This document shows positions 13,937 to 29,337 of a stretch of 64,000 nucleotides of DNA, one piece after another. Position numbers and translations under genes: made by a program. Location: the NCBI GenBank assembly GCA_963780375.1, contig CAWABV010000008.1, positions 1,002,052-1,066,051 on the forward strand. Direction: 5' to 3'. Position 1 is the first letter of the stretch; each line of letters opens with the position of its first letter. Source of the stretch: an uncultured Chloroflexia bacterium (GTDB lineage Bacteria > Chloroflexota > Limnocylindria > Limnocylindrales > CSP1-4). The notes below the pieces were generated by a model. That model was not told the origin of the DNA, searched no databases, and saw only the letters and a program-made list of their open reading frames with translations.

Positions 13937-14728
13937 TCAGCCGCCGGCGTCGATGATCGGCCGGCCGCGGCGCATCGCCCGCGACCGATTCGCCCACATC
14001 GCGAGCCGCGTGCGCCAGAAGTCGCGAACGGCCCGAAAGACCACCTGGAGTTTCGCGCCAGTGGGCGACCCGGCTGTGCGTGGATAGTGGGGGACGCCCA
14101 CCTCGACCACCGACCGACCGTCGGCCCGTAGCCGGATCAGGAGCTCCGCGGAGAAGAAGGCTCCGTCGGACTCGACCCGGACGCCCGCCAGCGCCTCGCG
14201 CCGGAACAGCTTGGAGGCGCAGTCGACATCGGTGACCGTGAGACCGAAGAAGAGCCGGTTGGCCAGCCGGTACGCACGGGCATACAGCGTCCGAACGAGG
14301 GGATCGGCGCGCTTGATCCGATACCCGACCACGACGTCGGGCTGATCCGCGCCGGCCAGCCGCTCGGTCAGGCGGCCGAGATCCTCGACACGGAACTGGC
14401 GATCGCCGTCGGTGAACGCGACGAGCTCGTAGCGTGCCGCGCCGAAGCCCGACCGGAGGGCGGCGCCGTAGCCGAGGTTGGTCGGATGGTGGACCGCCCG
14501 GACGACGCCCGGATGTGTAGCCGTCAGCTGGTCGGCGAGGGCCCGTGTCCGATCGCGCGAGCCGTCATTGACGGCGATGATCTCGAACGTCTCGGCGATG
14601 ACCGGCAGGCTCTCGAGCGCCTCCTCGACGAGGCCCTCGATATTCGCCTCCTCGTTATGCGCCGGGAAGAAGAACGAGAGGCGCGCGACGCGTCCGGGTC
14701 CCGTCGGTGCCGCCACGGTGGCCGTCAC
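13937..14728 (-). CDS. GT2 polyprenol-phosphate glycosyltransferase (dolichol/polyprenol-phosphate mannose/glucose synthase-like)
   Basis: LSFFFPAHNEEANIEGLVEEA...IIAVNDGSRDRT...NLGYGAALRSGF...FTDGDRQF is the GT-A DXD/ED architecture typical of Ppm1/DPM1/GtrB. Confidence 0.85.
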   Translation of the reverse strand: MTATVAAPTGPGRVARLSFFFPAHNEEANIEGLVEEALESLPVIAETFEIIAVNDGSRDRTRALADQLTATHPGVVRAVHHPTNLGYGAALRSGFGAARYELVAFTDGDRQFRVEDLGRLTERLAGADQPDVVVGYRIKRADPLVRTLYARAYRLANRLFFGLTVTDVDCASKLFRREALAGVRVESDGAFFSAELLIRLRADGRSVVEVGVPHYPRTAGSPTGAKLQVVFRAVRDFWRTRLAMWANRSRAMRRGRPIIDAGG

Positions 14729-16227
14729 TCGCCGGCCTCACGACTACGGATGACGCGACCGAGCAGGCTCGTATCGAAGCCGTCGATCTGCTCGACGACG
14801 TAGCGCTCGGCGATGCCGCGGATCTCCGATGGCTCGATGCGGATCACATAGACCGGCCGGGTCGGCAGGAATCGGTCGATCACTTGGTAGACGTCTCCCA
14901 GGTCGAGGTCGAGGCGGGTACGGTCGTCGATGATAAAGAGGTCGCGCCGTCGACCCTCGATCACTTGCGCATACCAGAGTGGCGTCGAGTAGCTCCACCA
15001 GCTCACGATGACGGCATTCGGCTCCATACGCGCGAGCGTCTGGTCCAGCCAGCGGGGCGCGGAGAGATCGCCGCTCCGGTCGACGACCCGGTAGCGATCC
15101 CCGAGCTCGATCGTGGTCGGGACCAGGAGGACGATGGCGAGGACGACCACGACCACCGGTTGCATCCGGCGGCGGCCCTCGTCGTCGAAGCCCCTCCCGG
15201 CCAGCCGGGCGATCCCCTCCGCGAGGGTCGCGAGCCACGTCCATCCCATCAGGACGGGAACGACGTAATAGCGGTCGATCATGGCGTTGACGTAGGACGC
15301 CGCGAAGAAGCAGGTGAGCGCGACCGCCGAACCGGTCAGCAGCGCATACCGCGGCTGCCGGAGCACGGTGACCGCGAACGCGAAGGGCAGGAGGACGGCC
15401 AAAGGCCCGAACGCGTCGATCGTGCGGAGCGCGAGGTCACCAGCCTTGAACGCGAGGTCGTCGAACGGGCCGAGAAGGGCTCCGCGGAATTGCTCCGCGA
15501 GCGCGATGTACCAGAAGCCATCCCATGTGTCGGGACGGCCGTATATCAACGGCGCAGGGAATGGCCCGGCCCGGAGCGGCAGCTCGAGGTAGACGAGGGC
15601 AGTGGTGAGGACGGCGGCGACCAGACAGCCGACGACGAGGCGCGGCCGCCAGAGCATCTCGGGATCGACCACTGCGACATAGAGGAGGATCGGCGGCAGG
15701 AAGAGCAGGGTCAGCGAGTGGTTGCCGGCCGCGAGCCCGAATACGACCGCCGCCGCCATGAGGGTCCGGTCCCGTCGCCCTTCCTCCCAGGCCACCAGGA
15801 GTCGCAGCAGGACGGCGCTCAGTGCGAGGTGCAGGGCGTGCGCCTCCGCCTGGGTACCGACCTTCCAGACGATGCCCGTAAGCGCGAGGCCGAGCCCCGC
15901 CATGACCCCGAGAAGGGCCGATCTCGTCAGCGCCCGGACGAGGTCGACCGTGACCGCGGCGGCCGCCGCTACGCACAGGCCCGCGAACAGGTTCATGCGG
16001 AACGCCGGGTCGCCGAACGGGCTCAGGAGGATGTTCGCGACCCACGCGAGCAGGACGTAGGTCGGGAAGCCGGTCGGATGGGCTGTGCCGAGCACCGGCG
16101 CGACGACCTGCAGCTCGGCGGTATCCCAGTACCCGATGCCCGGCAACATGGCGAGCCGCTCGGCGATGAACGCCACGATGCCGACCGCCAACGGGGGCAG
16201 CCACCGCCCGGCCGCCCCGCTCACCAT
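14725..16227 (-). CDS. DUF2723-family polytopic membrane glycosyltransferase (GT-C fold, TMEM260-like)
   Basis: The complement ATG at 16227 sits 1 nt after the stop of the upstream GT-C gene. The signature reads GIGYWDTAELQVVAPVLGTAHPTGFPTYVLLAW, with many TM helices. Confidence 0.65.
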   Translation of the reverse strand: MVSGAAGRWLPPLAVGIVAFIAERLAMLPGIGYWDTAELQVVAPVLGTAHPTGFPTYVLLAWVANILLSPFGDPAFRMNLFAGLCVAAAAAVTVDLVRALTRSALLGVMAGLGLALTGIVWKVGTQAEAHALHLALSAVLLRLLVAWEEGRRDRTLMAAAVVFGLAAGNHSLTLLFLPPILLYVAVVDPEMLWRPRLVVGCLVAAVLTTALVYLELPLRAGPFPAPLIYGRPDTWDGFWYIALAEQFRGALLGPFDDLAFKAGDLALRTIDAFGPLAVLLPFAFAVTVLRQPRYALLTGSAVALTCFFAASYVNAMIDRYYVVPVLMGWTWLATLAEGIARLAGRGFDDEGRRRMQPVVVVVLAIVLLVPTTIELGDRYRVVDRSGDLSAPRWLDQTLARMEPNAVIVSWWSYSTPLWYAQVIEGRRRDLFIIDDRTRLDLDLGDVYQVIDRFLPTRPVYVIRIEPSEIRGIAERYVVEQIDGFDTSLLGRVIRSREAGE

Positions 16228-17624
16228 CCGAGGATGCGACCCCAGATGACGCCCCACGCGTTGACCATCACGGACAGGACGATGAGGCCCATCGCCAGCG
16301 GCATCGCCCAAGCCGCTCGTCGCGCTCGATCGACGAGCCAGGAGAAGCCTATGGCTACGAGGACCAGCGCGAACGGGAGGACATCGTTACTGAACCGATA
16401 GCCGAACTGGACCCAACCCTGGCTGAAGTGCATGAGGTTCGCCACGGAGACCAGCGCGATCGCGAGCAGGGCGGCGACGACGATGCGGCGCCTCCTGCGG
16501 TCGAACCAGGCCGGGATCGCGAGCAGGAGGGCCGGTGTCGTCAGCAGCACGCTCATGCCTGTGTCTCGAGGCAGCGCCAGCGGGCAGTCGGGGTCGAAGA
16601 GCCCGCGCGTCCCACCGGGCGCCGCGCACAGCGGCCGATCGATCGTGCCGAGCGTGTCCTGGAAGCGCTCCGGCATGAGCGTGGGCGTGGACAGCAGCAT
16701 GATCGCGAGGTTCTGGGGCAGGTACCTGGGGTCCTCCGCGGTCCAGTCCGGGTGGTAGCCGAGACGGGTGTACGCCCGGGACTCGAGCTGGTAGAGGTGG
16801 TCGTAGGCCGGGTGGAAGACGTGGCCGGTCGAGACGACGTTGTAGATCACCAGCGCCGCCACGGGGATCGCCGCGCCGAGCGCGACGGCGACGCCGCGCC
16901 GTCGCCAGTCCCGGCCCGGCGCAACGAGGACGAAGAACGGCAGGGCGAGGATCACGGTGAGCCGCGCCGTCGCCGCCACGCCGATGAGGAAGCCGTTCAT
17001 GACCGCGCTCGGGAGGGTCCGGCGCCCCGCTCCACCCGAGGCTCCATCGCCGCCCCGCGCCGCAGCGTCGCCCGGGGCTCCCTCACCGCCCAGCGCCAGG
17101 CCGACCGCCAGCATCGTCAGCCCGACCGCCACGATGTGCGCCTGGTACCAGGTCGTCGTGTTCTGCGCCGCGTACCAGAAGGCGGTCCCGAAGGCGAAGA
17201 CCACCGTCGTACCGGCACGGACGACGATCGAGACGCCGAGCCGGCCGATCATCCACCAGCACAGCGCGACGTCGACGGCCGCGAAGATCGTGAAGATCAA
17301 CTGGTCATCCGCCTGGAGACCGAAGGCGGCCACGAACGGGATCACCACGAGGGCCGGCAGCGGCGGGAAGGGGATCAGGCCGCGCTCGCTGCCGGCCACT
17401 CGTCCGATGGGCAGGACGTCCTGGAAGAGGTAGTTGCCGAATCGTTCTGCCGTGTTCAGTACTGGATAGCGGATGCCGGCCTGACCCTCGAGGAACGCGG
17501 CGGCCTGCCACACGAAGTGGTCGTAGTAGCGCGGGACGAAGGTGAGTCGAAAGACCGCGAACGCGGCTACCGCGAGCGCGATCCCCGCCAGCGGGACGAG
17601 GACCGACATCGCCCGCGACGTCAC
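16221..17624 (-). CDS. GT-C superfamily membrane glycosyltransferase (ArnT/PMT_2/GT87-like)
   Basis: Polytopic, 467 aa, with the first-loop acidic motif ...NYLFQDVLPIG... It forms a 4-nt-overlap chain with the downstream DUF2723 and GT2 genes. Confidence 0.6.
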   Translation of the reverse strand: MTSRAMSVLVPLAGIALAVAAFAVFRLTFVPRYYDHFVWQAAAFLEGQAGIRYPVLNTAERFGNYLFQDVLPIGRVAGSERGLIPFPPLPALVVIPFVAAFGLQADDQLIFTIFAAVDVALCWWMIGRLGVSIVVRAGTTVVFAFGTAFWYAAQNTTTWYQAHIVAVGLTMLAVGLALGGEGAPGDAAARGGDGASGGAGRRTLPSAVMNGFLIGVAATARLTVILALPFFVLVAPGRDWRRRGVAVALGAAIPVAALVIYNVVSTGHVFHPAYDHLYQLESRAYTRLGYHPDWTAEDPRYLPQNLAIMLLSTPTLMPERFQDTLGTIDRPLCAAPGGTRGLFDPDCPLALPRDTGMSVLLTTPALLLAIPAWFDRRRRRIVVAALLAIALVSVANLMHFSQGWVQFGYRFSNDVLPFALVLVAIGFSWLVDRARRAAWAMPLAMGLIVLSVMVNAWGVIWGRILGW

Positions 17625-17650: not shown

Positions 17651-20600
17651 GTGCCTGTGCTACGCTCAGATCAACCTTCCACGCTCGTGCAGGAGCCGTT
17701 CTACCCGGTGACTGGCCCCGATCCCGGTGCGTACGAGCGAGGCACGGGAGCGCCGCCTCGGTCGACCGGGATCCAAGGAGCCGTCGGCGTCGTCCTGATC
17801 GCCCTCGCTCTCGGACTCGCCATCCGGCTCACCCTTTTATACCTGCTCCCCGGTTCGGGCTTCGGGCCCGACCTGGCGTCGTTCCGTTTCTGGGCGAACG
17901 ACCTGGCGACGAACGGCCTGCACGGTTTCTACGAGCGTGACTTCTTCCACGACTACACGCCCGGTTACCTGTATGTCCTGTGGCTGGTCGGCACGGTCGG
18001 CAAGGCCATCGGCGGCATCGGTGACCTGATCAAGATCCCGCCGATCATCGCCGACGTCGGCATCGCCTATCTCGCCTGGTCGATGCTCCGCGAGCTCGGC
18101 GTCCGCGACCGCTTGGCTGTGCTGACCGCGCTGGTCGTGATGCTGAACCCGATCTTCTGGTTCGACAACGTGATCTGGGGCCAGGTCGACTCGTTCGGCG
18201 TGCTGTTCCTGCTGCTCGGCCTGCGCTCGCTCTGGCGCGACCAGCCGGAACGCGCAGCGATCTTCGGCGTCATCGCCGCCGTGATCAAACCGCAGCTCGG
18301 TATCCTGCTGCCGGTGATCGCGGTGGTCACCATCCGCCGTGCATTGCGACCGTCGCCGAAGGACCCGGCGTCGATCTCGGCGGTCGACCCGATCCGGCGA
18401 CTCGAGGCACAGACCGGCCACCCGATCCGGATCGTCACCACCGTCCTCGCGGGCTACATCACCGCGCTCATCCTCTGCCTGCCGTTCGGATTGACGGTGC
18501 TGCAGGTCATCCCGAACCCGCCCTTCGTCGCCTCCGGCCTGCTCGAGCAGATCGCCCTCGCCGGCGGTGGTTACCCGTACCTGACCGTCAACGCCTACAA
18601 CACCTGGGCACTCGTCCCGAGTGATCTCGGGATCAGCCTCGCGGCGTCTAGCCAGTGGGTCTGTGACGCCTCGACCACGCCGGCCGACCTGTGCGGAACC
18701 GGGGTCGTCCAGTTCGGGGCGGTCCCGGCGGTCGTCGTCGGCGCCGTCCTGCTGGTCGTGGCCATCCTCACCGTCCTGTGGGCGATCTGGCGGAACCCGG
18801 ACCGCCTCACGATCACCGTCGGGCTGGCCATCATCGCTCTGGCCTTCTTCATGGCCCCGACCCGCGTCCACGAGCGCTACGGCTTCCCGTTCTTCGCTAT
18901 CGGGGCAATGCTCTTCGCGATCTCGCCGCGCTGGCGGGTCGCGTATGTGGTCCTCAGCATCGCGACGTTCGCGAACATGTATGTCGTCCCGACGACGATC
19001 TATCCCCCGACCGATCCGACCACCAACCCGTTACGCGACTGGTTCGCCATCGGCCCCGAGATCCGCTCGCAGGCCGGCGTCACGATCGTCGCGGTCATGC
19101 ACACCGGGGCCTCGATATGGGCATGGCTCCAGCTGCGCCGCTCGGCACGGGAACGGCTCGAGGAGGAGCTCTACACGGCCTCGCGCGAGTCGCTACCCGA
19201 TCGCGTGCCGGGCCGCGCCGTGGCACCCGGCGTCGCGCCAGGAGCCGTCGGCCTGTCGGTGGCCGCATCGACGGCACAGCCGACCACGCTGCCGACCTGG
19301 TCCGAGCCGGCGCGGTTCGAGGAGGTCGGCGTGACCGGCTGGATCTCGGACCGGTTGCGGGCCGCACCCTTCCGCGCGGATCGCAGTCGCTCACTGGCGA
19401 GCGAGGGCGGCGGTCGCTTCGACCGTCTCGACGCGTGGCTGCTCGTCGTGCTGATCCTGGCCACGCTGGGGATCCGACTGTTCCGCCTGGCGGAGCCATA
19501 CCAGATGCACTTCGACGAGGTCTACCACGCGCGGACCGCGACGGAGTTCCTCCAGGACTGGCGCTATGGCGAGTCGCATGTCATCTACGAGTGGACCCAT
19601 CCGCATCTCGCCAAGTACGCGATGGCGGCCGGACTCGTGCTGTGGGGCGGGGACCACGTCCAGGCGACGGCCGAGCTCGGCACGCCGGTCCGCGCTGTCG
19701 CGATCGAGCCACGCCGGGAGGACGGGACGGCACGGGCCGGCGAGCGGTTGCACATCGCCACGGGCGAAGAGATCCGGACCGAGGATCTCCGGACACGCCG
19801 CACGATCGCGGAGACGCCGGCACCGGGAGTCGGCGCGCTCACCGTCGACTCGACCCTGACCCGCCTCGTCCTGGGCGCGGACGACGGCACGATCTCGACC
19901 ATCGACCTCACGGGTATCGGCATCGACGGTACCGACAGCACCCCGGTCCGGTTGGCGACCGTCCCGCATCCGGTCGACCATCTCCTGGTCGCCGACGACG
20001 GCACGATCGTCGCCGCCTCCGACATCGACGTCACGACCATCGATGGCACCTCCGGCGACATCCTCGGCCACGCCGAGTTCGACGGCGTCGCCGACCTGGC
20101 CCCGGGCGGCTCGGGCCCGGTGCTGCAGGGCGACCCGAGCGCTATCGACGACCCGACCGCGGTCGCCGAGACACTCGCCTCGCTCATCGGCGGCGACCCG
20201 CTCGACTATGAGTCGAGGATCACGAGGGCGGAGCCCGGGGCGTCGGTCCTGTTCGGTAGCCCGGGGAGCGGTGAGACGCGGACGTCGGTCGACGACGCCA
20301 TCACCGACGGTCGGCTGCCTGGGATCGAGATCGTCGACCTGCCGCGGATCGCGGTGGCGACGTCCGAAGGCGTCTCCTTCATCGATCCGGCGAGCGCGGC
20401 CACGACGTCGTCGGTGCCGCTCGACGGTGGCGCGCACGGGTTGGCGTTCGTGACGGGGATCGACGACACCCAGTTGTACGTCTCGAGCGGATCCCGTGAG
20501 GACCCGACGTACCACGTGCTCAAAGTGAGCGGCGATAAGGCGGCCAACGGTCCGATCGACCAAGGGAGCCACCCGCTGCCCGGTCTCGGCTCGCAGGTCG

Positions 20601-23044
20601 CCTACGACGAGGCCACCATGCACATCCACATCCTGGGCCTCGCGCCGCCGGAAGAAACGGCGGGATCCGGTGACCGCTGGACCGTGTACGTGATCCAGCC
20701 GCGCGCCGACGACCCCGCCGTGTATGCCGACGCGGCCCTCCCGCCCGACTTCACGCCGGTCGACATGGCGATGGACGTCGAGCCGCAGTACCAGACCGAC
20801 GACCGTGAAGACCTGCTGGTGTTCGACGGCGATGGCACCGTCGCCTCCATCGATACCGGCTCGCACGCCTTCGCGTGGCGCTTGCCGGGCGTCCTGGCCG
20901 GCGTCCTGATGGCCGCCAGCCTGTACGTCCTGGCCCGGATCCTGTTCGCGCGACGGAGCGTGGCCGTCGCCGTCGCCGCGTTCGTGATCCTCGACGGGAT
21001 GTTCTTCGTCCAGTCGCGCATCGGGATGAACGATGTCTACGTCGGCCTGTTCATCGTCGCGGCGTACACGGTCGTCGCCGCCATCTGGACGGGCTGGTGG
21101 CGTGGCCGCTTCGCGTTCTGGATCGCGATGCCCATCATCGGCCTGCTCCTCGGGCTGGCCTTGGCCTCGAAGTGGGTCGCGGCCTACGCGATCGGCGCGC
21201 TCATCCTGTTGCTGCTCATCCGCAGCGCCCTCGGGCGCATCGTGGCGATCCTCGGACTCATCGCGATCACCGGCGCGCTCGGCTACCTCGCGATGGCCGG
21301 CCAGTCGTTCGGCAACCTGCCGTTCCTCGTGATCATGATCGGACTGACGATCCTGGCCGTGGTCGTCGCGGTCTTCCATCCGATCGCCTGGACCGACGAG
21401 GAGATGTGGCTGGCGTTGCTGGCCCCGGCTGCCGCAGGTGCCGCCCTGTTCTTCGGGACTCTGGCGCTCGGCGAGCTGAACACGGAGATCGTCATCGGGC
21501 CCCTGTCGGTGACGCCGTTGCTGGCGGCCATCGCCACCTCGCTCGGCTCGGTCGTCGTCTATGCCGCGTTCCGTGTCGGCGGGTCACTCGGCTACGGACC
21601 GCTCGCGCCGCCGATCCGACCGGGCGATCCGGAGTGGGTCCTCGACCCACCCGGCGATGCACCGACCGGCTGGCTGCGACCCGGCTGGGCGTTCGGCATC
21701 CCGATCGTGTGGGCGACGATCTGCGTGCTCGCCGTCCCAGTCGGCGTATATGTCGTGAGTTACCTGCCATGGGCGGCGATAGAGAACCATCAGTTGTGGC
21801 CGGGCTACCCGGCCGGCCACAGCGGACAGACGCTCGTCGAGCTCACCCGCCAGATGTACGACTACCACAACGGGCTGACCGCGCCGCATCCCGCGTCGTC
21901 GCCATGGTGGGCGTTCCCGTTCGATCTCAAGCCCGTGTGGTTCTACCAGGAAGGCTTCGCCGGATCGACCAGCGCCGCGATCTACGACTCCGGGAACCTG
22001 GTGATCTGGTGGCTCGGGATCGCCGCTCTGATCTTCGTCTCGATCATGGCCTACCGCCGGCGGTCGCCAGCGCTCGCGCTCATCGCGATCGGCTTCGCCG
22101 GTCAGTGGGTGCCGTGGGCGCGGATCGACCGGGCAGCCTTCCAGTATCACTACTACACGGCGCTGCCGTTCCTGATCCTCGCCCTGGCATACCTCGTGGC
22201 GGAGCTGTGGCACGGGGCGTCACGCCGGACCTGGATGTGGATCCGCATCGCCGCCGCAGCGGCCCTCATCGGACCGGCCGTGATGTGGCTGTTCTCGCGC
22301 CCGCTGTGCGTCCTGGTGGGCGTCACGATCGTCAATCCCGGATCGCAAGCCTGTCCGGCCGTCATCCCGGACTTCGTCCTCACGATCCGGACCCTGGCGC
22401 TGCTCACGCTCCTCGTCGGTGGCGGGATCCTCCTCTGGCTGTGGCTCGCGCGCATGCAGCAGCGGGAGGGCGGTCTGGGCGACGCGCGGTCGAGCCTGCC
22501 CCTGCTCGGGGTGGCGTTCGGCATCGGCGTAGCCTCCCTGCTCCCGGAAACGCCACTCCTGACGTGGCGCGGGATCCCGGTCGAGCCGGTCGCGCTGCTC
22601 GTCCTCCTGCCACTGCTCTATCTCGCCGGGCAGGTGGTGGCGGCCCGCGACGCTCGCCGGTTCGTGGTCGGCATCGGCGTGGCCGTGACGGCGTGGTTCG
22701 TGCTCTGGTACCCGAACCTCTCGGCCTTGCCGTTGCCGTCGACCGTGGTCAACGCCTACCAGGGCTTCCTGCCGACCTACCTGTATGCCTTCCAGTTCCC
22801 CGTGAACACCGCTGCACGGCCGGCGACACCGTTGCTCAGCCCGGTCCCGATCGCGCTGACCATCGCCCTCGGCCTGACCTGCCTCGTGGTCGCCTACTCG
22901 GCCTCGGTCTGGCGGCTGGCACTAGCCGAGTCTCGAGCGAATGCGGCCTCGGGCTCTGGCCCGTCCGGTCCGGGTGCTGCTGCCGGCTCCTCGGCGATGG
23001 ACGGTGGGGCAGAGGGCCTGGCCCGGACCGGTGGGGGCGCCTGA
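17651..23044 (+). CDS. giant (1797 aa) fused membrane glycosyltransferase: N-terminal DUF2029/GT87 (PimE-like) domain, then a PMT-family (GT39-like) domain carrying a ~400-aa beta-rich extracytoplasmic insertion
   Basis: N-terminal domain: FGPDLASFRFWANDLATNGLHGFYERDFFHDYTPGYLYVLW, which is PimE/GT87-like. Second domain: LGIRLFRLAEPYQMHFDEVYHARTATEFLQDWRYGESHVIYEWTHPHLAKY, the PMT DE-loop. A soluble repeat-rich insert (GTISTIDLTG..., VADDGTIVAASDIDVTTIDG...) lies between them. More than 25 predicted TM helices. Confidence 0.7.
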   Translation: MPVLRSDQPSTLVQEPFYPVTGPDPGAYERGTGAPPRSTGIQGAVGVVLIALALGLAIRLTLLYLLPGSGFGPDLASFRFWANDLATNGLHGFYERDFFHDYTPGYLYVLWLVGTVGKAIGGIGDLIKIPPIIADVGIAYLAWSMLRELGVRDRLAVLTALVVMLNPIFWFDNVIWGQVDSFGVLFLLLGLRSLWRDQPERAAIFGVIAAVIKPQLGILLPVIAVVTIRRALRPSPKDPASISAVDPIRRLEAQTGHPIRIVTTVLAGYITALILCLPFGLTVLQVIPNPPFVASGLLEQIALAGGGYPYLTVNAYNTWALVPSDLGISLAASSQWVCDASTTPADLCGTGVVQFGAVPAVVVGAVLLVVAILTVLWAIWRNPDRLTITVGLAIIALAFFMAPTRVHERYGFPFFAIGAMLFAISPRWRVAYVVLSIATFANMYVVPTTIYPPTDPTTNPLRDWFAIGPEIRSQAGVTIVAVMHTGASIWAWLQLRRSARERLEEELYTASRESLPDRVPGRAVAPGVAPGAVGLSVAASTAQPTTLPTWSEPARFEEVGVTGWISDRLRAAPFRADRSRSLASEGGGRFDRLDAWLLVVLILATLGIRLFRLAEPYQMHFDEVYHARTATEFLQDWRYGESHVIYEWTHPHLAKYAMAAGLVLWGGDHVQATAELGTPVRAVAIEPRREDGTARAGERLHIATGEEIRTEDLRTRRTIAETPAPGVGALTVDSTLTRLVLGADDGTISTIDLTGIGIDGTDSTPVRLATVPHPVDHLLVADDGTIVAASDIDVTTIDGTSGDILGHAEFDGVADLAPGGSGPVLQGDPSAIDDPTAVAETLASLIGGDPLDYESRITRAEPGASVLFGSPGSGETRTSVDDAITDGRLPGIEIVDLPRIAVATSEGVSFIDPASAATTSSVPLDGGAHGLAFVTGIDDTQLYVSSGSREDPTYHVLKVSGDKAANGPIDQGSHPLPGLGSQVAYDEATMHIHILGLAPPEETAGSGDRWTVYVIQPRADDPAVYADAALPPDFTPVDMAMDVEPQYQTDDREDLLVFDGDGTVASIDTGSHAFAWRLPGVLAGVLMAASLYVLARILFARRSVAVAVAAFVILDGMFFVQSRIGMNDVYVGLFIVAAYTVVAAIWTGWWRGRFAFWIAMPIIGLLLGLALASKWVAAYAIGALILLLLIRSALGRIVAILGLIAITGALGYLAMAGQSFGNLPFLVIMIGLTILAVVVAVFHPIAWTDEEMWLALLAPAAAGAALFFGTLALGELNTEIVIGPLSVTPLLAAIATSLGSVVVYAAFRVGGSLGYGPLAPPIRPGDPEWVLDPPGDAPTGWLRPGWAFGIPIVWATICVLAVPVGVYVVSYLPWAAIENHQLWPGYPAGHSGQTLVELTRQMYDYHNGLTAPHPASSPWWAFPFDLKPVWFYQEGFAGSTSAAIYDSGNLVIWWLGIAALIFVSIMAYRRRSPALALIAIGFAGQWVPWARIDRAAFQYHYYTALPFLILALAYLVAELWHGASRRTWMWIRIAAAAALIGPAVMWLFSRPLCVLVGVTIVNPGSQACPAVIPDFVLTIRTLALLTLLVGGGILLWLWLARMQQREGGLGDARSSLPLLGVAFGIGVASLLPETPLLTWRGIPVEPVALLVLLPLLYLAGQVVAARDARRFVVGIGVAVTAWFVLWYPNLSALPLPSTVVNAYQGFLPTYLYAFQFPVNTAARPATPLLSPVPIALTIALGLTCLVVAYSASVWRLALAESRANAASGSGPSGPGAAAGSSAMDGGAEGLARTGGGA

Positions 23045-24195
23045 GGGACCGCCGCCTGGAAGCCGTCGGGTAGCGAGCCTGATGCGGCCAGGCGCCGGAT
23101 CACGAAGCCGTAGTAGTCATCGACCTTGGCCGTGACCCGCGCCCACGAGAACTCCTCGGCACGGACGCGACCCGAGGCGCCCATCTGTTCGCGCAACGCG
23201 GGGTCGCGGAGCAACTGGTCGATGGCCGTCGCCAGCTCACGTGGCTGCCGGGGCGGGACGAGCAGCCCCTCGCGGCCACGCCGCAGGACGCCCTTGTAGC
23301 CGTGGATGTCCGAGGCCACGATCGGTGTGCCGGCAGCCATCGCCTCGAGCAGGACGATCCCGAAGGATTCGCCGCCAGTGGCGGGTGAGGCGTAGACGTC
23401 GGCCGTCTTATAGAGCTGGGCCTTCTCGTCGTCTGACACTCGACCGAGGAACTCGACGCCATTGAGCCCGCGGGTCGCCACGTAGCGGCGCGCCTCGCGC
23501 TCCTGCGGCCCGGATCCGACGATCAGCAGCCTCGATCGGCCGCCCGTGCGGCGCAGGATGCGGTGCGCCTTGAGCAGGTCGAGCAGCCCCTTGCGCGGCT
23601 CGTGACGGCCCACGAACAACACGTTGGGCGTGCCGTCCTGCCAGCGCGCGATCGGCACGGCCGTCGCGAACCGGGCGACGTCGACGCCGTTGGGGATGAC
23701 CTTGTAGTCGCCCGGGAAATAGCGGTCGATGAAATGACGCGCCGCGGCGCTGACGGCGATGCGGCCATGCAGCCGAGCCGCGTACCCGCCCAGCGCCCGG
23801 CTGCCGAACTCATAGGACGGCGAGAAACCGGCGTAGGCGTGGAACGTCGCGATGTTGACGCTCGACGACTCGCGCAGCAGGAAGAGCGAGAGGAACGGCA
23901 CGAACGGCTCGTGGAAATGCAGGACGTCGAACCGTTCGCGCTCGAGCATGTCGTCGATCTGGGTCAGATAGCGCGGCGAGAAGGTCAGCGTCCCGACCGA
24001 GGCGTTGATCGGGACCGAGAAGCCGACGCCGAGCCGGATGATGTCGCCCTCCGACGCCCGTTGGGGGCCGTGGCTCGCGGTCAGGATGCGGACGTCATGG
24101 CCGCGCTGGCGGAGCCCCTGGTACAGGAACTGGACGTGCTGGGCGACGCCACCGCTGGCGGGGTAGATGTACGGGCAGACGAGGCCGACCTTCAT
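22894..24195 (-). CDS. pimA: GT4 glycosyltransferase, PimA-like (phosphatidylinositol mannosyltransferase candidate)
   Basis: The complement ATG at 24195 gives MKVGLVCPYIYPASGGVAQHVQFLYQGLRQRGHDVRILT. The C-terminal GT-B signature reads ASPATGGESFGIVLLEAMAAGTPIVASDI. It is last in the PI-pathway operon, and its 3' end overlaps the giant GT gene by ~150 nt. Confidence 0.8.
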   Translation of the reverse strand: MKVGLVCPYIYPASGGVAQHVQFLYQGLRQRGHDVRILTASHGPQRASEGDIIRLGVGFSVPINASVGTLTFSPRYLTQIDDMLERERFDVLHFHEPFVPFLSLFLLRESSSVNIATFHAYAGFSPSYEFGSRALGGYAARLHGRIAVSAAARHFIDRYFPGDYKVIPNGVDVARFATAVPIARWQDGTPNVLFVGRHEPRKGLLDLLKAHRILRRTGGRSRLLIVGSGPQEREARRYVATRGLNGVEFLGRVSDDEKAQLYKTADVYASPATGGESFGIVLLEAMAAGTPIVASDIHGYKGVLRRGREGLLVPPRQPRELATAIDQLLRDPALREQMGASGRVRAEEFSWARVTAKVDDYYGFVIRRLAASGSLPDGFQAAVPQAPPPVRARPSAPPSIAEEPAAAPGPDGPEPEAAFARDSASASRQTEAE

Positions 24196-25010
24196 CGCTC
24201 CGCACGTGGTTCGTAATGCGGGGGTCGGGCGCGTCCACCGGGATAGCCGTGGTCGCGGCCCGTGCCGGATCGGCGGATCCGCCCGCTGATCTCGTCGCGG
24301 GCGTCGACCGCTCGTTTGCGGATCTGCTGGCCGAAGACGCCGAATTGGCCGACCGTGCCGTGGAACGAGCCGCCGTGATCGGTCGTCCGCGCCGCGATCG
24401 CCGCGCGCAGGTCGACGGCCACGCTGCCGGGAAAGCTCGTCCAGCCGGCGCCGACCGCCTCGAGTGCATGGGCATCGCTGTTGCCGATCCGGGCCAGCTG
24501 GTGCTCGTCGGCGAAGCGCACGACCCGATCGTGCCACGGCCGCCCGAGCGCCGTCGGGTTGAACGTCTCGATCGCGTCCGGCCGGACCGCTTCGTCGGGA
24601 TCGTCGAGCAGGCGCCGGAGCGCCCAGCCCTGGGCGCACAGCGGGTACGGCACGAGGGGATGGGCGGGGATCGCGATGCCGCCCGCGTCGTGGACATCGG
24701 CGATCGTGCGGCCCAGCGTGCGGAAGGGCTTGATGCGACGCTCGATGAAGAGCGCGAGCAGGTGCCCGCCGAGGGTGGTCACCTCCTCGCCGACGATGAC
24801 GTCGATCGGCAGGCCGCGGTCGCGCGCGATCGCCCGCCCGGCGACCGCTGCGTCGATGCGCTCGTGATCGGTGATGGCGATGAGGTCGAGCTGACCCATC
24901 GCGGCGACGTGCTCGATGATCGACACGACGTCGGCGATGCCGTCCGAGGCGACCGTGTGGATGTGGAGGTCGGCTCGCCCCGCGTGGGTGGCCTCGTCGG
25001 CCGCCGTCAT
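24192..25010 (-). CDS. PHP-domain metal-dependent phosphoesterase
   Basis: The complement ATG at 25010 (MTAADEATHAGRADLHIHTVASDGIADV...) shows the PHP His motifs HIHT, DHE, HP. It has ATGA overlaps with both neighbours. Confidence 0.7.
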   Translation of the reverse strand: MTAADEATHAGRADLHIHTVASDGIADVVSIIEHVAAMGQLDLIAITDHERIDAAVAGRAIARDRGLPIDVIVGEEVTTLGGHLLALFIERRIKPFRTLGRTIADVHDAGGIAIPAHPLVPYPLCAQGWALRRLLDDPDEAVRPDAIETFNPTALGRPWHDRVVRFADEHQLARIGNSDAHALEAVGAGWTSFPGSVAVDLRAAIAARTTDHGGSFHGTVGQFGVFGQQIRKRAVDARDEISGRIRRSGTGRDHGYPGGRARPPHYEPRAER

Positions 25011-25975
25011 GCGGCCGCCTCGGCCCGATCGTCGTCCGGCGCCACGCCGTCGGCCAGGTCCGGCCAGATCGGGAAGAAGACGGCCCACCATTGCTCGGGC
25101 GCGTCCGCGATGACGCGCTCGAAGATCCGCGCGATCGATGCGGTGGTCGCGGTCGCGCGTTCGCGACGAGATCCCTCGGCGGCGACGTCGACCCGGTCGA
25201 GGCGTCCGATGTAGCGCCCGGGCGTCGTCCGCCGGACCGCGGTCACGTACGCCGGGGCGCCGGTCTCGATGGCGAGCAGCGCCGGACCCAGCGGCAACCG
25301 GGCCGGCGCGCCGAACAGCTCGGTGAGCGTCCCGCCCCCGGTCAGGTCGCGATCGCCGACGAGGCCCACCGGCGTCCCGGCGCGCAGGGCCGCGGTCAGT
25401 TCCCGCCGCGCCTCGCGCAGCCCGACGATCCGGATACCGGCCGCGCCACGCGTCCGGACGAACCAGGCCTGGAGCTCTGGATCGTCGAGCGTCTCCATCG
25501 GCCCGACCGCCTCTCCGACCCGCGACGCGAGGAACAGCGCCGGCAGCTCGAGCGCCCCGAAGTGCAGCCCGACGAAGATCGCCGGTCGACCCGGTGTGAA
25601 CGCGTCGTCGACCGTCTCCGGCGTCTCGACGGCCATCCGCCTGGGGAGCTCCGCCCCGGCGATGGCCGGTGTCCGCGCCACCTCGACGTAGTAGCGGGCG
25701 GCATGCCGGTACGCCAGCCGCACCAGTCGCTCCAGGGCGCGTGGGTCATGCGCCGCCTTCCGGGCCAGCGGCGTACCGCGATCGTTCGCGTCCAGCCACG
25801 TCACGACCCGCGAGAGGTTGCGCCGCGCCTGTGCCGCCCGTTCCGGCGTCATCCGGTACCAGAGGTCGCCGGCGAGCTCCGCCAGCGCCACCAGCGGCGA
25901 CTCGGGGAGATGGCAGGCCAGCCACGAGGCGCCGCGGATGGCACGACCGCGAAGCCGGCGGCCGAGGCGTCGCAC
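25007..25975 (-). CDS. LpxL/HtrB-family lipid acyltransferase (PIM acyltransferase-like), paralog 2
   Basis: The GTG at 25975 overlaps the upstream stop. The PF03279-like region reads ...LSRVVTWLDANDRG...FVGLHFGALELPALFLASRVG...GLVGDRDLTGGG... Confidence 0.7.
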   Translation of the reverse strand: MRRLGRRLRGRAIRGASWLACHLPESPLVALAELAGDLWYRMTPERAAQARRNLSRVVTWLDANDRGTPLARKAAHDPRALERLVRLAYRHAARYYVEVARTPAIAGAELPRRMAVETPETVDDAFTPGRPAIFVGLHFGALELPALFLASRVGEAVGPMETLDDPELQAWFVRTRGAAGIRIVGLREARRELTAALRAGTPVGLVGDRDLTGGGTLTELFGAPARLPLGPALLAIETGAPAYVTAVRRTTPGRYIGRLDRVDVAAEGSRRERATATTASIARIFERVIADAPEQWWAVFFPIWPDLADGVAPDDDRAEAAA

Positions 25976-25977
25976 GA

Positions 25978-27033
25978 TCAGGCGAACTCCGGTGCCGGGC
26001 CAGGGTCTGCGACGCCATCCAGCATGAGGCCGGCTCGCCGCTCGAGGTCGGCCGCCTCGTCCGGCGTCGACGGCCAGATCGGCTTGAAGCTGTACCACTG
26101 GTCGGGCGCTGCCGCGACCGAGGACGCGAGGGCATCGGCGATGGCCTGGGTGGCGCGCTGGAGGTCCGCGGGGTCCGATGACGGCACCTCGATGGCCGTC
26201 GACCACGACACGTGGAACGAGTCGTCGGGCAGCCGGCGGATCGAGATCGGCAGGATCAGTGAACGGCTCTTCGCCGCGAGCGTCGCGGGTCCCGCGGGCA
26301 GCGCCGTCCATTCGCCGAAGAGGCGCACGGGGATCCCATCGGCGCGATAGCCCCAGTCGACGAGCAAGCCGAGGATCTCGCGGCGGCGAAGTACGCCGAA
26401 GATCTCGCGGAGGTTCCGCCACGCGATCAGCTTCACGCCCCAGCCCTCACGCTGGCGACGGAGGATCTCGTAGATCTCGGGGAAGGCGAAATCGTCGGCG
26501 ACCACGCTGATCGGCATGCCGTGATGGGCGATGGCCGCCGCGACCGCCTCGTTGCTCCCGAGGTGGCCGACCGTCAGGATCAGCCCGCCGCCTGGTGCCT
26601 CCTGCCAGATCCGGCGCACCTCCTCGACGTCCAGGTCCGGTGCCAGCTTCGCGACCTGCTCGGGCGGCATCGACGGCAGCCGCATCAACTCGACGAGATA
26701 TCGCCCGTAGCCCATGTAGGCGGCCATCGCCGCCTCGCGGACGCGAGGATGATCGCGCGGCAGCCCTAGGACGTGCCCGAAGTTCCGGTTCGACCAATGG
26801 CGCTTCGTCGGCCAGGCGAGATAGGACAGCTGCGAGAGCCGGCCGATGATCGCCGCGGCCGGCTTGGGCGGCACCGAGGACAGCAGCCACGCCGTGGCGC
26901 GATACCCGAGGACGGCGAGCCGTTCCACGACGCGCGGGCTGGCGCCGCCGCGTCGGTGGGGCGCCTCGAGTCGGCGATCGATGCCGGACGGCTTGGTCGC
27001 GGAGGCCGGCTGCGGACGGTCTCCCGAGGTCAT
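25978..27033 (-). CDS. LpxL/HtrB-family lipid acyltransferase (PatA-like), paralog 1
   Basis: [57 protein letters not shown]...[15 protein letters not shown]. The ATG overlaps the ino1 stop. Confidence 0.75.
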
Positions 27034-28283
27034 GAACCCGCGGTCGTCGGAACTCCCGTACGCGCGCCGGCGAGCTTGCGGAGCTTGCGCGCGGCGGGCT
27101 TCTCTGTGCCGACCAGCGTCTCCGAATCATCGCCGCGGATGAACGCCTCGACCCGCTCACGGCCGACGTCGTCCGGGATCTGGCGCGGCGGGCTCTTCAT
27201 GAAGTAGGCCGATGGGGCGACGAGCGTGCCCGACAGCCCGCGATCGAGCCCGAGCTTGAGGCAGCGGATCGCGTCGGTTATGACGCCCGCCGAATTCGGC
27301 GAATCCCAGACCTCGAGCTTCAGCTCGGCGTTGAGGGGCACGTCGCCGTACGTCGTGCCCTCCATCCGGATGTAGCACCACTTGCGGTCCTGGAGCCACG
27401 GCACGTGGTCGGACGGACCGACATGGACGTTGTCGGCATCGAGCTCGTAGTCGAGCATGCTCGTGACGGCGTTGGTCTTCGAGATCTTCTTCGACTCGAG
27501 GCGCTCGCGCTCGAGCATGTTCAGGAAATCGGTGTTGCCACCGAAGTTCAGCTGATACGTGCGATCGAGGCGAACGCCGCGGTCCATGAACAACCGCGTC
27601 AGGACGCGGTGGCTGATGGTGGCGCCGACCTGGCTCTTGATGTCGTCCCCGATGACCGGCAGGCCTTCTTCGGCGAAGCGCCGCTGCCAATACGGCTCGC
27701 GTCCGATGAACACGGGGATGGCGTTCACGAACGCGACGCCGGCGCGGAGCGCCTGCTCCGCGTACCACTTCGTGGCTTCCTCGCTGCCGACCGGGAGGTA
27801 CGACACCATGACGTCGACCTCACGCTCCTTCAGGATCCCGACGATGTCGGCAGTCTCCCCGGGCGCCTTCTCGATGATCTGGCTCAGGTACTTGCCGAGG
27901 CCGTCATGGACCATCCCGCGCTCGACCGTGACGCCGAGCTTGCCGGTGTGATGGAACACGAACGTATTGTTCGGCTTCGTGTAGATCGCCTCGCCGAGGT
28001 CCTTGCCGACCTTGTTCTTGTCGATGTCGAAGGCGGCGACGAACTCGATGTCGCGCACGTGGTAGCCGCCGAGGTTAACGTGCATCAGACCGGGCACGAA
28101 GTCGTCGTCGTTCGCGTTCTCGTAGTAGTGGCGACCCTGAACGAGGCTGCTCGCACAGTTGCCGACCCCGACGATGGCGACGCGGACCTTGCCATCGCCG
28201 CGCCGCCTGGCGCCAGCCCAGTCATTCGACGGTGTCGAACCGTTCGTGCCGTTCCCGTTCCCGTTCTTGCCGTTCGTGCTCAC
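27030..28283 (-). CDS. ino1: myo-inositol-1-phosphate synthase
   Basis: [18 protein letters not shown]...[29 protein letters not shown]...[22 protein letters not shown] are diagnostic MIPS motifs. Confidence 0.95.
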
Positions 28284-28930
28284 GTCTGCTCCTGTTCGAT
28301 CGGGGGGCCCGCGGCCTCCCGGATGGCTTGTGCGCGGACATGGAGGATGCGCTGGAGGGTGGTGATGGTCGCCCCGACGGCGATGATGATCAGGGCGTAC
28401 TCGATGGCCTTGATGTCAGGCGGATCGGTGAGGATCAGACCGATCGAGACGATGACGAGCCGGACCTCCCGGGGCATGAGGCCGACGGCGGCCATCCCTC
28501 GCCCAGGCGTGAAGCCGAGGCCCTCGGACTTCGCGCGCGTGTAACTCACCATGAATGCCGCGCCCATCGCCGCGGCCGCCAGGATCGGCACGCGCTGGTG
28601 GCCAGCGAGCACCGCTCCCGCCACGATCCCGAGATAGACGATGGCCTCGCCCCAGCGGTCGAAGACGGAGTCCAGGAACGCGCCGAGGCGGCTGGCCTTC
28701 CCGGTCGCCCGGGCGAGCGTGCCGTCGAACATGTCGAAGACGCCGCCGACGAACACGACGAGACCACCCAGGGTCCAGCGTTCCGTCGCGATCAGCAGCG
28801 CACCGCTGACCGTGATCGCGAACCCGATCAGCGTCAGGGCGTCAGGCGTCAGGCCGAGCCGTCCCATGCCGAGTGCGATCGGTTCGAAGATGCCCTTGAT
28901 ACGGTCGCGGGCCTGGTTCGAGAGCGTCAA
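28280..28930 (-). CDS. pgsA: CDP-alcohol phosphatidyltransferase (phosphatidylinositol-phosphate synthase PgsA1-like)
   Basis: A TTG at 28930 forms a TTGA overlap with the arsR stop, giving a 216-aa product. It carries the CDP-OH_P_transf motif [30 protein letters not shown] and 5-6 TM helices. Confidence 0.8.
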
Positions 28931-29307
28931 CTCGCGATCCCCAGGATCGCGCGCTCGCGAGCGGCGACTTCGCCGAATGCCTCGGGTCGGAGGGTGCAGA
29001 TCGTCTCGCGGCCGACGCGACGCGTCTCCACGAGTCCGGCGGTGCGAAGCCGTTTGAGGTGGTGGCTGACGAGCGGCTGCGAGAGGCCCACGTGCGCGAT
29101 CAGCTCCGCGACACTGGCCTCGCCCTCGGCGAGTCGCCGGACGATGCGCAGGCGGTTCACGTCGGCGAGGGCCTTGTGGAAGGCGCGCAGTTCGCGCAGG
29201 TCCTCCGGCTGGAGGACGATCGAGGCTAGCGTGGAACGGAAGCGGGCGGGGGTCGGCACGTTCGGGTGGGGTTCTCCGGGGGGAAGGGTCGTCGGCGTGG
29301 GACGCAT
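28927..29307 (-). CDS. ArsR/SmtB-family HTH transcriptional regulator
   Basis: ALADVNRLRIVRRLAEGEASVAELIAHVGLSQPLVSHHLKRLRTAGLVETRRVGRETIC is a winged-HTH ArsR signature. It is the first gene of the overlapping PI operon. Confidence 0.75.
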   Translation of the reverse strand: MRPTPTTLPPGEPHPNVPTPARFRSTLASIVLQPEDLRELRAFHKALADVNRLRIVRRLAEGEASVAELIAHVGLSQPLVSHHLKRLRTAGLVETRRVGRETICTLRPEAFGEVAARERAILGIAS

Positions 29308-29337
29308 CAACGACCGTTGATATCAACGGATGTTGAT
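29306..29337. promoter_or_regulatory. tandem inverted repeats ATCAACG-ac-CGTTGAT and ATCAAC-ggat-GTTGAT; candidate ArsR operator in the divergent arsR/MFS promoter region
   Basis: The sequence atcaacgaccgttgatatcaacggatgttgat overlaps the arsR start codon and lies ~80 nt upstream of the divergent MFS gene. Confidence 0.5.

Follow-up and report, generated by a model that had tools for sequence, protein, structure and literature searches.

GT-C glycosyltransferases, which depend on lipid-phosphate sugars, build cell envelopes and protein glycans and include the drug targets EmbB, PimE and protein-O-mannosyltransferase (PMT). The characterized bacterial PMTs and PimE are single-module proteins of about 430–550 amino acids (aa), and we know of no characterized GT-C enzyme with more than one catalytic module per polypeptide. 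In actinobacteria, O-mannosylation is begun by PMT (family GT39) with a single mannose; one or two more then come from PimE or other GT87 enzymes, with polyprenyl-phosphate-mannose as the donor throughout (PMC12757957; PMC12331936). Here we describe a gene of an uncultured Chloroflexia bacterium (class Limnocylindria) that joins two GT-C modules in one protein. It lies at positions 17651 to 23044 of a stretch of 64,000 nucleotides, called the window below (assembly GCA_963780375.1, contig CAWABV010000008.1, positions 1,002,052 to 1,066,051). A preliminary description of this DNA had read the gene as a single polypeptide in which a PimE/GT87-like and a PMT-like glycosyltransferase are fused, with a large soluble insert, and had suggested that it works as a processive two-step glycosylation machine.

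The single polypeptide with two GT-C modules is borne out. The open reading frame (ORF) is uninterrupted, and Pfam domains fall in both of its halves. Our best explanation of the whole, to which we give a probability of about 50%, is that the PMT module initiates glycosylation, the N-terminal module elongates the product and a β-propeller inserted into the PMT module docks the acceptors. In the literature on Limnocylindria glycosyltransferases, on phosphatidylinositol mannosides (PIMs) of Chloroflexi and on tandem or fused GT-C enzymes we found no description of the fusion protein, nor of any GT-C–GT-C fusion or of a loop-1 propeller in a PMT. The architecture thus appears to be undescribed and is built from known kinds of enzyme. 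Public annotation of the family is generic ("phospholipid carrier-dependent glycosyltransferase", "Gpi18-like mannosyltransferase / PMT").

Architecture of the fusion protein

The gene and its parts are as follows.

17651..23044, + strand: ORF of the fusion gene, 1797 codons from the first GTG, uninterrupted
17771..19183, + strand: N-terminal GT-C module, aa ~41–511, with ~12 predicted transmembrane (TM) helices
19184..19423, + strand: Arg-rich linker, aa ~512–591, predicted to be disordered and probably cytoplasmic
19424..19654, + strand: PMT TM1 and first part of periplasmic loop 1, aa 592–668, with the DE motif (D622-E623) and the HPHLAKY helix
19655..20857, + strand: predicted seven-bladed β-propeller, aa ~669–1069, in PMT loop 1, with a helical sub-insert at aa ~835–885
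20858..22330, + strand: PMT core, TM2–TM11, aa ~1070–1560, from Pfam PMT, PMT_4TMC, the phmmer match to Pmt4 and invariant columns
22331..22960, + strand: conserved C-terminal extension of ~5 TM helices, aa ~1561–1770, from hydropathy and AlphaFold2 (AF2) helices

In the C-terminal half, Pfam PMT (PF02366) matches aa 1071–1190 over profile positions 80–198 (33.9 bits against a cut-off of 22.7), and PMT_4TMC (PF16192) matches aa 1394–1553 (60.7 bits against 32.4, E 2e-16). A phmmer search matches the module to yeast Pmt4 (9e61), and the PMT_4TMC region aligns to 9i5k as well. In the comparison with Pmt4, FDEVYH (aa 621–626) stands opposite FDEVHF and HPHLAKY opposite HPPFAKM, in a stretch that by itself stays below significance (−0.5 bits). 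The preliminary description had called this half PMT-like from a loop-1 motif that is indeed present in the translation (LFRLAEPYQMHFDEVYHARTA…EWTHPHLAKY, aa 610–656), and both the domain matches above their cut-offs and the alignment of the DE and HPxLAK elements to Pmt4 agree with it. Invariance was judged over 50 homologues of 57–90% identity; within the PMT module it marks D622-E623, R1123-IGMN-D1128 (Rx4D, in external loop 2) and R1494/Y1499/H1500. The essential residues of the Mycobacterium tuberculosis PMT (MtPMT) are D74, D176 (in Rx4-6D) and R441/Y444 (PMC12331936), and the DE pair, R1123-x4-D1128 and R1494…Y1499 appear to fit these motifs, by their description and not by a residue-level alignment. 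Judged by its sequence, module 2 (aa ~592–1560) is a GT39 protein-O-mannosyltransferase-type enzyme.

Module 2 shares with the GT39 PMTs (yeast Pmt1/2/4, Rv1002c, Streptomyces coelicolor Pmt) the PMT and PMT_4TMC domains, the loop-1 DE followed by HPxLAK and, as it appears from the motif descriptions, the loop-2 Rx4D and the R/Y residues in the C-terminal four-TM region; a polyprenyl-phosphate sugar donor and an active site outside the membrane would be expected in common. It differs from them in where its soluble part lies: the fusion has a propeller in loop 1, whereas eukaryotic PMTs have a MIR β-trefoil in loop 5 and characterized bacterial PMTs no soluble domain. No MIR domain was found by Pfam in the fusion, where the PMT and PMT_4TMC regions have a short loop between them; the characterized bacterial PMTs are without MIR too, and MtPMT is described as lacking soluble domains (PMC12331936). 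About five extra C-terminal TM helices and the second GT-C module set the fusion further apart.

The HPxLAK helix precedes the insert, and TM2 follows it. In silico deletion of aa 669–1069 gives an unbroken Pfam PMT match from profile position 2 to 198 (39.3 bits) and lifts PMT_2 above its cut-off, which places the propeller inside PMT loop 1 (external loop 1, EL1); the point of deletion falls in a short segment of Pmt4 that leads from the second loop-1 helix to TM2. The insert is predicted with a local confidence (pLDDT) of ~90 and contains ~30 β-strands and a helical sub-insert. Foldseek matches it to β-propellers only (TMt up to 0.73), and the predicted structure is a closed propeller with seven four-stranded blades. 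What had been described as a soluble β-rich insert, possibly a β-propeller, can thus be given more closely as a confidently predicted seven-bladed YncE/YVTN-like propeller, and the DGTI/TIDG-type units on which that description drew occur at aa ~746, 783, 798 and 1061. Its position needs a correction: the insert does adjoin the PMT loop-1 motif and is an all-β domain of ~400 aa, but it stands inside loop 1 rather than after it, at aa ~669–1069. By homology of the flanking PMT elements, the propeller would be periplasmic and would sit beside the catalytic DE motif. No Pfam family matches the insert, and its identity to YncE/YVTN propellers is 15%. Those are free periplasmic or surface proteins, whereas this propeller is embedded in a loop of a membrane enzyme and carries a helical sub-insert. 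A search of the family profile against the PDB gave, as its only unexpected match (E 4e-5), residues 23–164 of 4ovd, deposited as "peptidoglycan glycosyltransferase", against part of the propeller at aa ~768-905 of the fusion (window ~19950-20365).

The AF2 model of the N-terminal module, built from a 51-sequence alignment, has a mean pLDDT of 80 and a predicted template-modelling score (pTM) of 0.79. It shows the features of the GT-C_A fold, namely a multi-TM core, a long external loop 1 with juxtamembrane helices and an acidic residue, and structural similarity to several solved GT-C enzymes. By fold, the module is nearer to ALG6, ALG3 and glycosylphosphatidylinositol (GPI) mannosyltransferase I (GPI-MT-I) than to PimE, which is among the structural matches and is not the closest solved fold; the same three enzymes also score above PIG-U. 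The family profile gave no sequence-level match for the N module among PDB sequences, ALG6 included. Pfam GT87 (PF09594) matches with 26.1 bits against a cut-off of 25, over profile positions 32–122 of 237, in a scan of aa 1–600 alone, and is absent from the full-length scan; it is precomputed in 2 of the 120 listed homologues. Alg6_Alg8 (PF03155) reaches 17 bits, below its cut-off of 25, at aa 361–440 only. The motif from which the PimE/GT87 label had been taken is present (DLASFRFWANDLATNGLHGFYERDFFHDYTPGYLYVLW, aa 74–111), and the borderline Pfam match favors that label, but the profile is covered in part and the fold points to ALG6, ALG3 and GPI-MT-I, so that the label is weakly supported.

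Invariant residues of the N module are D74, H100-D101-Y102, K213-P-Q and T404-R-V-H407-E-R-Y410. D74 stands in EL1, where the first juxtamembrane helix (JM1, aa 72–88) begins. The catalytic base of PimE, D58, occupies the tip of JM1, and the phosphate is bound by K195/H322 (PMC12041525). D74/K213/H407 may correspond to PimE D58/K195/H322 in kind, an equivalence drawn from position and not from superposition. From its sequence and predicted structure, we consider the N module to be a GT-C_A enzyme that looks active, belongs to no classified family and has the fold nearest ALG6, its membership in GT87 being undemonstrated. With ALG6/ALG8 (GT57) and ALG3 (GT58) it shares an Asp in EL1 and the motif HDYTPGY (LDYPPVY in a distant relative), whose D-Y-(T/P)-P we take to resemble the 'DYPP' of ALG6/8, the LDYPPVY form more closely; it differs in identity (10–12%) and in the low score for Alg6_Alg8. 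The acceptor must differ from that of ALG6 and ALG3, because the bacterial host has no dolichol-PP-oligosaccharide pathway. With PimE/GT87 it shares the borderline Pfam match, an Asp at the beginning of JM1 that may be catalytic, and Lys and His candidates for holding the phosphate. GT87 enzymes extend both PIMs and the O-mannose chains begun by PMT, and PIM-like genes occur in the fusion locus. PimE differs by its weaker fold match, by a Tyr (Y62) where the N module has Phe and by being a stand-alone protein of ~430 aa.

From the list of helices and the positive-inside rule, module 1 would have 12 TM helices and both ends in the cytoplasm, which is compatible with the N-in orientation needed by PMT TM1. 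The linker between the modules has a pLDDT below 50 at aa 523–550, and its first half is poorly conserved (0.29 for aa 501–550). The C-terminal extension has a conservation of 0.6–0.7 and matches no Pfam or other family; a nearly invariant pair of cysteines, C1553/C1568, spans its junction with the PMT core. About 15 TM helices (10 in the PMT core and ~5 extra) follow the insert, where ~12 had been counted before.

The GC content of the window is ~70%, and long spurious ORFs are frequent in all frames. In the frame of the fusion, the GC content at third codon positions (GC3) is ~0.8–0.97 in every 100-codon block of 17651..23044, linker included, and ~0.9 overall; because it is high throughout, we regard the ORF as a true coding sequence and not as a chance ORF of high-GC DNA. 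The true start is probably the GTG at 17708 (V20), as an AGGAG lies upstream at 17690–17694 and the consensus of the homologues begins at V20. The gene would then run from 17708 to 23044 (~1778 aa), and the first ~20 codons of the listed ORF are probably untranslated. Between the listed starts of the fusion ORF (17651) and the divergent GT87-like ORF (17624) there are 26 nt only; the real starts are probably internal to both, and that of the GT87-like neighbor is possibly an ATG at ~17609. At the other end, the fusion gene (+) and a convergent GT4 gene (−) overlap by ~150 nt (window 22894-23044). Both overlapping tails are of low complexity and rich in Ala/Gly/Pro/Ser, and the C-terminal …GLARTGGGA of the fusion is kept in homologues.

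Spread of the fusion in Limnocylindria

A protein search found 1178 clusters of related proteins. Among the 120 listed, at 58–98% identity, 118 are 1,725–1,862 aa long and two are shorter partial sequences. In a scan of GTDB with one genome per species, relatives are encoded in 235 species genomes; contiguity and synteny were counted in the best 80 loci. Wherever the contig permits, the match in these loci covers query residues ~2–1797 on one strand, and many of the contigs are hundreds of kb to Mb long. The preliminary description had allowed for a frameshift that would split the gene in two; with the full-length homologues and the contiguous loci, the fusion is no frameshift or assembly artefact. 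The same description had called the fusion exceptional, which holds against the characterized enzymes, although in this bacterial class the architecture is the rule. By record title, nearly all carriers belong to Chloroflexota / Candidatus Limnocylindrales / Limnocylindria. A few soil metagenome-assembled genomes with the fusion bear other taxon labels, which we take to be mis-binning or mislabelling. Limnocylindria are uncultured and are often recovered from soil and freshwater metagenomes.

A second subfamily in the same class (the P0184 family, e.g. P0282-P0400) has the same layout in 1,500–1,650 aa. A local hidden Markov model of the propeller matches the insert of this subfamily at either end and leaves the middle unmatched; the subfamily's propeller is homologous but has no helical sub-insert. 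In a few of its members, Pfam PIG-U (PF06728) or GT87 matches are precomputed in the N module.

One distant relative, the one with LDYPPVY in its N module, has its halves apart: at locus L082 (5903-12320 of a 228-kb JGI contig) the gene is split in the linker into ORFs of 702 aa and 1439 aa, which overlap by 11 nt (ATGgagacTGA), and the surrounding synteny is otherwise identical. This would mean that covalent linkage is not strictly required. However, the split may be a frameshift, because a close relative of the sequence, P0145, is fused (2092 aa). Forms lacking the N module were considered as well. P0150 was rejected as a fragment at a contig edge, with its gene starting at base 3. P0170, apparently without the N module, starts 333 bases from the end of its contig and has ~150 residues before the PMT module that do not match the N module. 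An exhaustive search of representatives with aa 1–1200 returned, as the top 150, members or fragments of the same family throughout and no stand-alone relatives of the N module.

Proposed function and alternatives

Both modules look catalytically competent, to judge from their invariant residues. We hypothesize that the two active sites open to the outer side of the cytoplasmic membrane and that both would use a polyprenyl-phosphate hexose supplied by the product of an adjacent GT2 gene. The PMT module would attach the initial sugar to Ser/Thr residues of proteins that are exported or reside in the membrane. Acceptors would be docked by the propeller, close to the catalytic DE motif, a task that MIR β-trefoil or tetratricopeptide repeat (TPR) domains have in eukaryotic PMT and TMTC enzymes. 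The N module would then add the next sugar or sugars, as GT87 (PimE) does after PMT in actinobacteria, and the covalent fusion would hold the initiating and the elongating site together on the same donor supply. The sugar would most likely be mannose, by the precedent of PMT, and could be glucose by the ALG6 fold. The processive two-step action suggested in the preliminary description is plausible in our inference and mirrors the actinobacterial PMT and GT87 pathway. A similar design is found in the PMT-related O-mannosyltransferases TMTC1-4/TMEM260, which combine a PMT-like GT-C core with a soluble luminal or periplasmic repeat domain, presumed to select acceptors, and a TMEM260-like gene lies two genes upstream of the fusion. 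These enzymes differ in having C-terminal TPRs instead of an EL1 β-propeller, and they show no detectable sequence relation to the fusion beyond a weak PMT_2 match.

Several points weigh against this proposal. With the NCBIfam Pmt equivalog NF058602 the fusion reaches 26.8 bits where the cut-off is 800, so far below it that the fusion is no orthologue of the characterized bacterial PMTs. In the N module, the GT87 identity stays undemonstrated with a borderline Pfam match and a best fold of a glucosyltransferase, ALG6, and Y62 of PimE, the Tyr that braces D58, is replaced by Phe (F78). The GT2 fits synthases of the GalNAc, Ara4FN, Glc and hexose types to a similar degree, all below cut-off, and does not assign the sugar. 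For both modules the function is read from family membership only, and the neighboring PI/PIM-like lipid genes (PI, phosphatidylinositol) would suit a glycolipid as the acceptor of the N module no less well. Finally, the structures were modelled by part, and the coupling of the two sites stays a proposal.

The neighboring lipid genes raise the possibility of a lipoglycan machine, in which one or both modules extend a PI-anchored glycolipid of the PIM/lipomannan kind on the outer face of the membrane, the N module acting like PimE/MptB-type enzymes and the propeller holding the growing glycan or a partner protein. A phosphatidylinositol-phosphate (PIP)-synthase-like gene, inositol-3-phosphate synthase, two PIM-acyltransferase-like genes and a GT4 flank the fusion in essentially all relatives and follow the logic of actinobacterial pgsA1–patA–pimA; three more glycosyltransferase genes form one conserved block with the fusion, and the structural matches of the N module include PimE. 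Yet the C-terminal module has GT39-specific features (PMT_4TMC with E 2e-16, DE, HPxLAK), and to our knowledge all characterized GT39 enzymes act on protein Ser/Thr. The neighboring lipid genes, moreover, all fall under the NCBIfam equivalog cut-offs, and adjacency on opposite strands, convergent or divergent, is weaker evidence than an operon. We consider a lipoglycan machine possible, though rather unlikely. We are more skeptical of a catalytic PMT joined to a non-catalytic N module, one that lost transferase activity or never possessed it and serves as a built-in dimer partner, a lipid-binding subunit or a substitute for the other protomer in the obligate dimer of PMTs. PIG-U/GAB1 are such non-catalytic GT-C-like partners in GPI transamidase, and Pfam PIG-U is precomputed in a few homologues; eukaryotic PMTs act as dimers (PMC7759382). 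Against this stand the invariant D74 in EL1, HDY, K213 and TRVHERY, a pattern of an active GT-C site (cf. PimE, PMC12041525), and the true enzymes ALG6, ALG3 and GPI-MT-I, which score above PIG-U.

A long, disordered and poorly conserved linker would also suit two independent enzymes fused for convenience, with unrelated acceptors, co-expression and a common donor pool and with neither channelling nor order, and the relative whose halves are separate overlapping genes would agree with this. But 235 species keep the fused state, which also persists in both of two divergent subfamilies, and the split case, whose close relative P0145 is fused, may be a sequencing frameshift; we therefore think it improbable that the two enzymes are merely housed together. 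As to an artefact, be it a chance ORF in DNA of 70% GC or a pair of genes merged through faulty assembly or a frameshift, the frequent spurious ORFs of the window and the one relative split in the linker would speak for it. It is effectively refuted by an in-frame GC3 of ~0.9, by Pfam domains in both halves and by contiguous homologues in 235 species genomes, some of them on contigs from hundreds of kb up to Mb in length, and we give it practically no weight.

A bolder form of the initiation–elongation proposal is that the protein acts as an obligate covalent "hetero-dimer" that couples, at a single site, the initiation and elongation of protein O-glycosylation, that the loop-1 propeller is a new acceptor-selection domain and that, with the adjacent inositol-lipid genes, Limnocylindria build an actinobacteria-like envelope of mannoproteins and PIM/lipomannan; the fusion would then be Rosetta-stone evidence that PMT and ALG6/GT87-type elongating enzymes form a physical unit. 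Taken together, this we hold to be doubtful. If the initiation–elongation proposal is true, a natural initiator-plus-elongator fusion with a soluble domain next to the catalytic DE motif would be a compact system for structural studies of acceptor choice and product hand-over in PMT-type enzymes. It would give independent genomic support to the elongation of PMT products by GT87-type enzymes proposed for actinobacteria. The conserved locus, with its inositol-lipid genes, four GT-C modules and GT2, amounts to a testable prediction on the Limnocylindria envelope, for which we found no published description. The architecture is real, conserved and structurally instructive, and multi-domain fusions of enzymes that share a pathway are well known in evolution; the mechanism is the part that we propose.

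The surrounding locus

The neighboring genes referred to above are the following.

10365-12608, + strand: syntenic membrane protein of 747 aa, with a weakly PP2C-like N-terminus and one TM segment
13937..14728, − strand: GT2 glycosyltransferase, Pfam Glycos_transf_2, syntenic in 64/80 loci
14725..16311, − strand: TMEM260-like GT-C protein, 528 aa, Pfam TMEM260-like E 7e-20, syntenic in 65/80 loci
16221..17624, − strand: separate GT87-like GT-C protein, 467 aa, Pfam GT87 25.9 bits against 25, syntenic in 64/80 loci
22894..29326, − strand: convergent operon, from Pfam and NCBIfam, order kept in 50–74 of 80 loci

The order conserved over the 80 loci begins upstream with the 747-aa membrane protein, a rhomboid gene, a BFN-domain gene, GT2 (−), the TMEM260-like gene (−) and the GT87-like gene (−). 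It continues with the fusion (+), GT4 (−), PHP (−), two acyltransferases (−), inositol-3-phosphate synthase (−), CDP-alcohol phosphatidyltransferase (−) and a major facilitator superfamily gene (+). From the matches of these neighbors, the locus looks like an outer-face glycosylation system fed by lipid-linked sugar that stands beside an inositol-phospholipid/PIM-like pathway. Scans of the window for tRNAs and Rfam families gave no matches.

The best NCBIfam matches of the GT2 are PpgS, ArnC, PgfS and Dol-P-hexose transferase, all below their cut-offs, which makes it a candidate polyprenyl-phosphate-sugar synthase that would produce the lipid-linked donor. The GT87-like gene is divergent from the fusion gene and is no close paralogue of the N module. 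In BLASTP comparisons of the N module with the GT87-like protein, and of the PMT module with the TMEM260-like protein, we found no meaningful similarity, and the fusion therefore did not arise by a recent duplication of its neighbors. Altogether the locus holds four GT-C modules and a GT2; some relatives are without the GT87-like gene or without the TMEM260-like gene.

The convergent operon encodes GT4, a PHP phosphoesterase, two PIM-acyltransferase-like proteins, inositol-3-phosphate synthase and a PIP-synthase-like CDP-alcohol phosphatidyltransferase. The acyltransferases match best to PIM acyltransferase, and the phosphatidyltransferase to PIP and archaetidylinositol-phosphate synthases, in both cases below the equivalog cut-offs. 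Inositol-3-phosphate synthase is 88–96% identical across the class. We speculate that the PHP protein could be a PIP phosphatase. The operon is an actinobacteria-style phosphatidylinositol/PIM gene set within a class of Chloroflexota.

In the 747-aa membrane protein at the upstream end of the conserved order, the large extracytoplasmic domain matches no Pfam family; the C-terminal tail is rich in Ser/Pro/Thr (…SPSPSGGASGSPSTAPSP) and resembles a possible acceptor for O-glycosylation.

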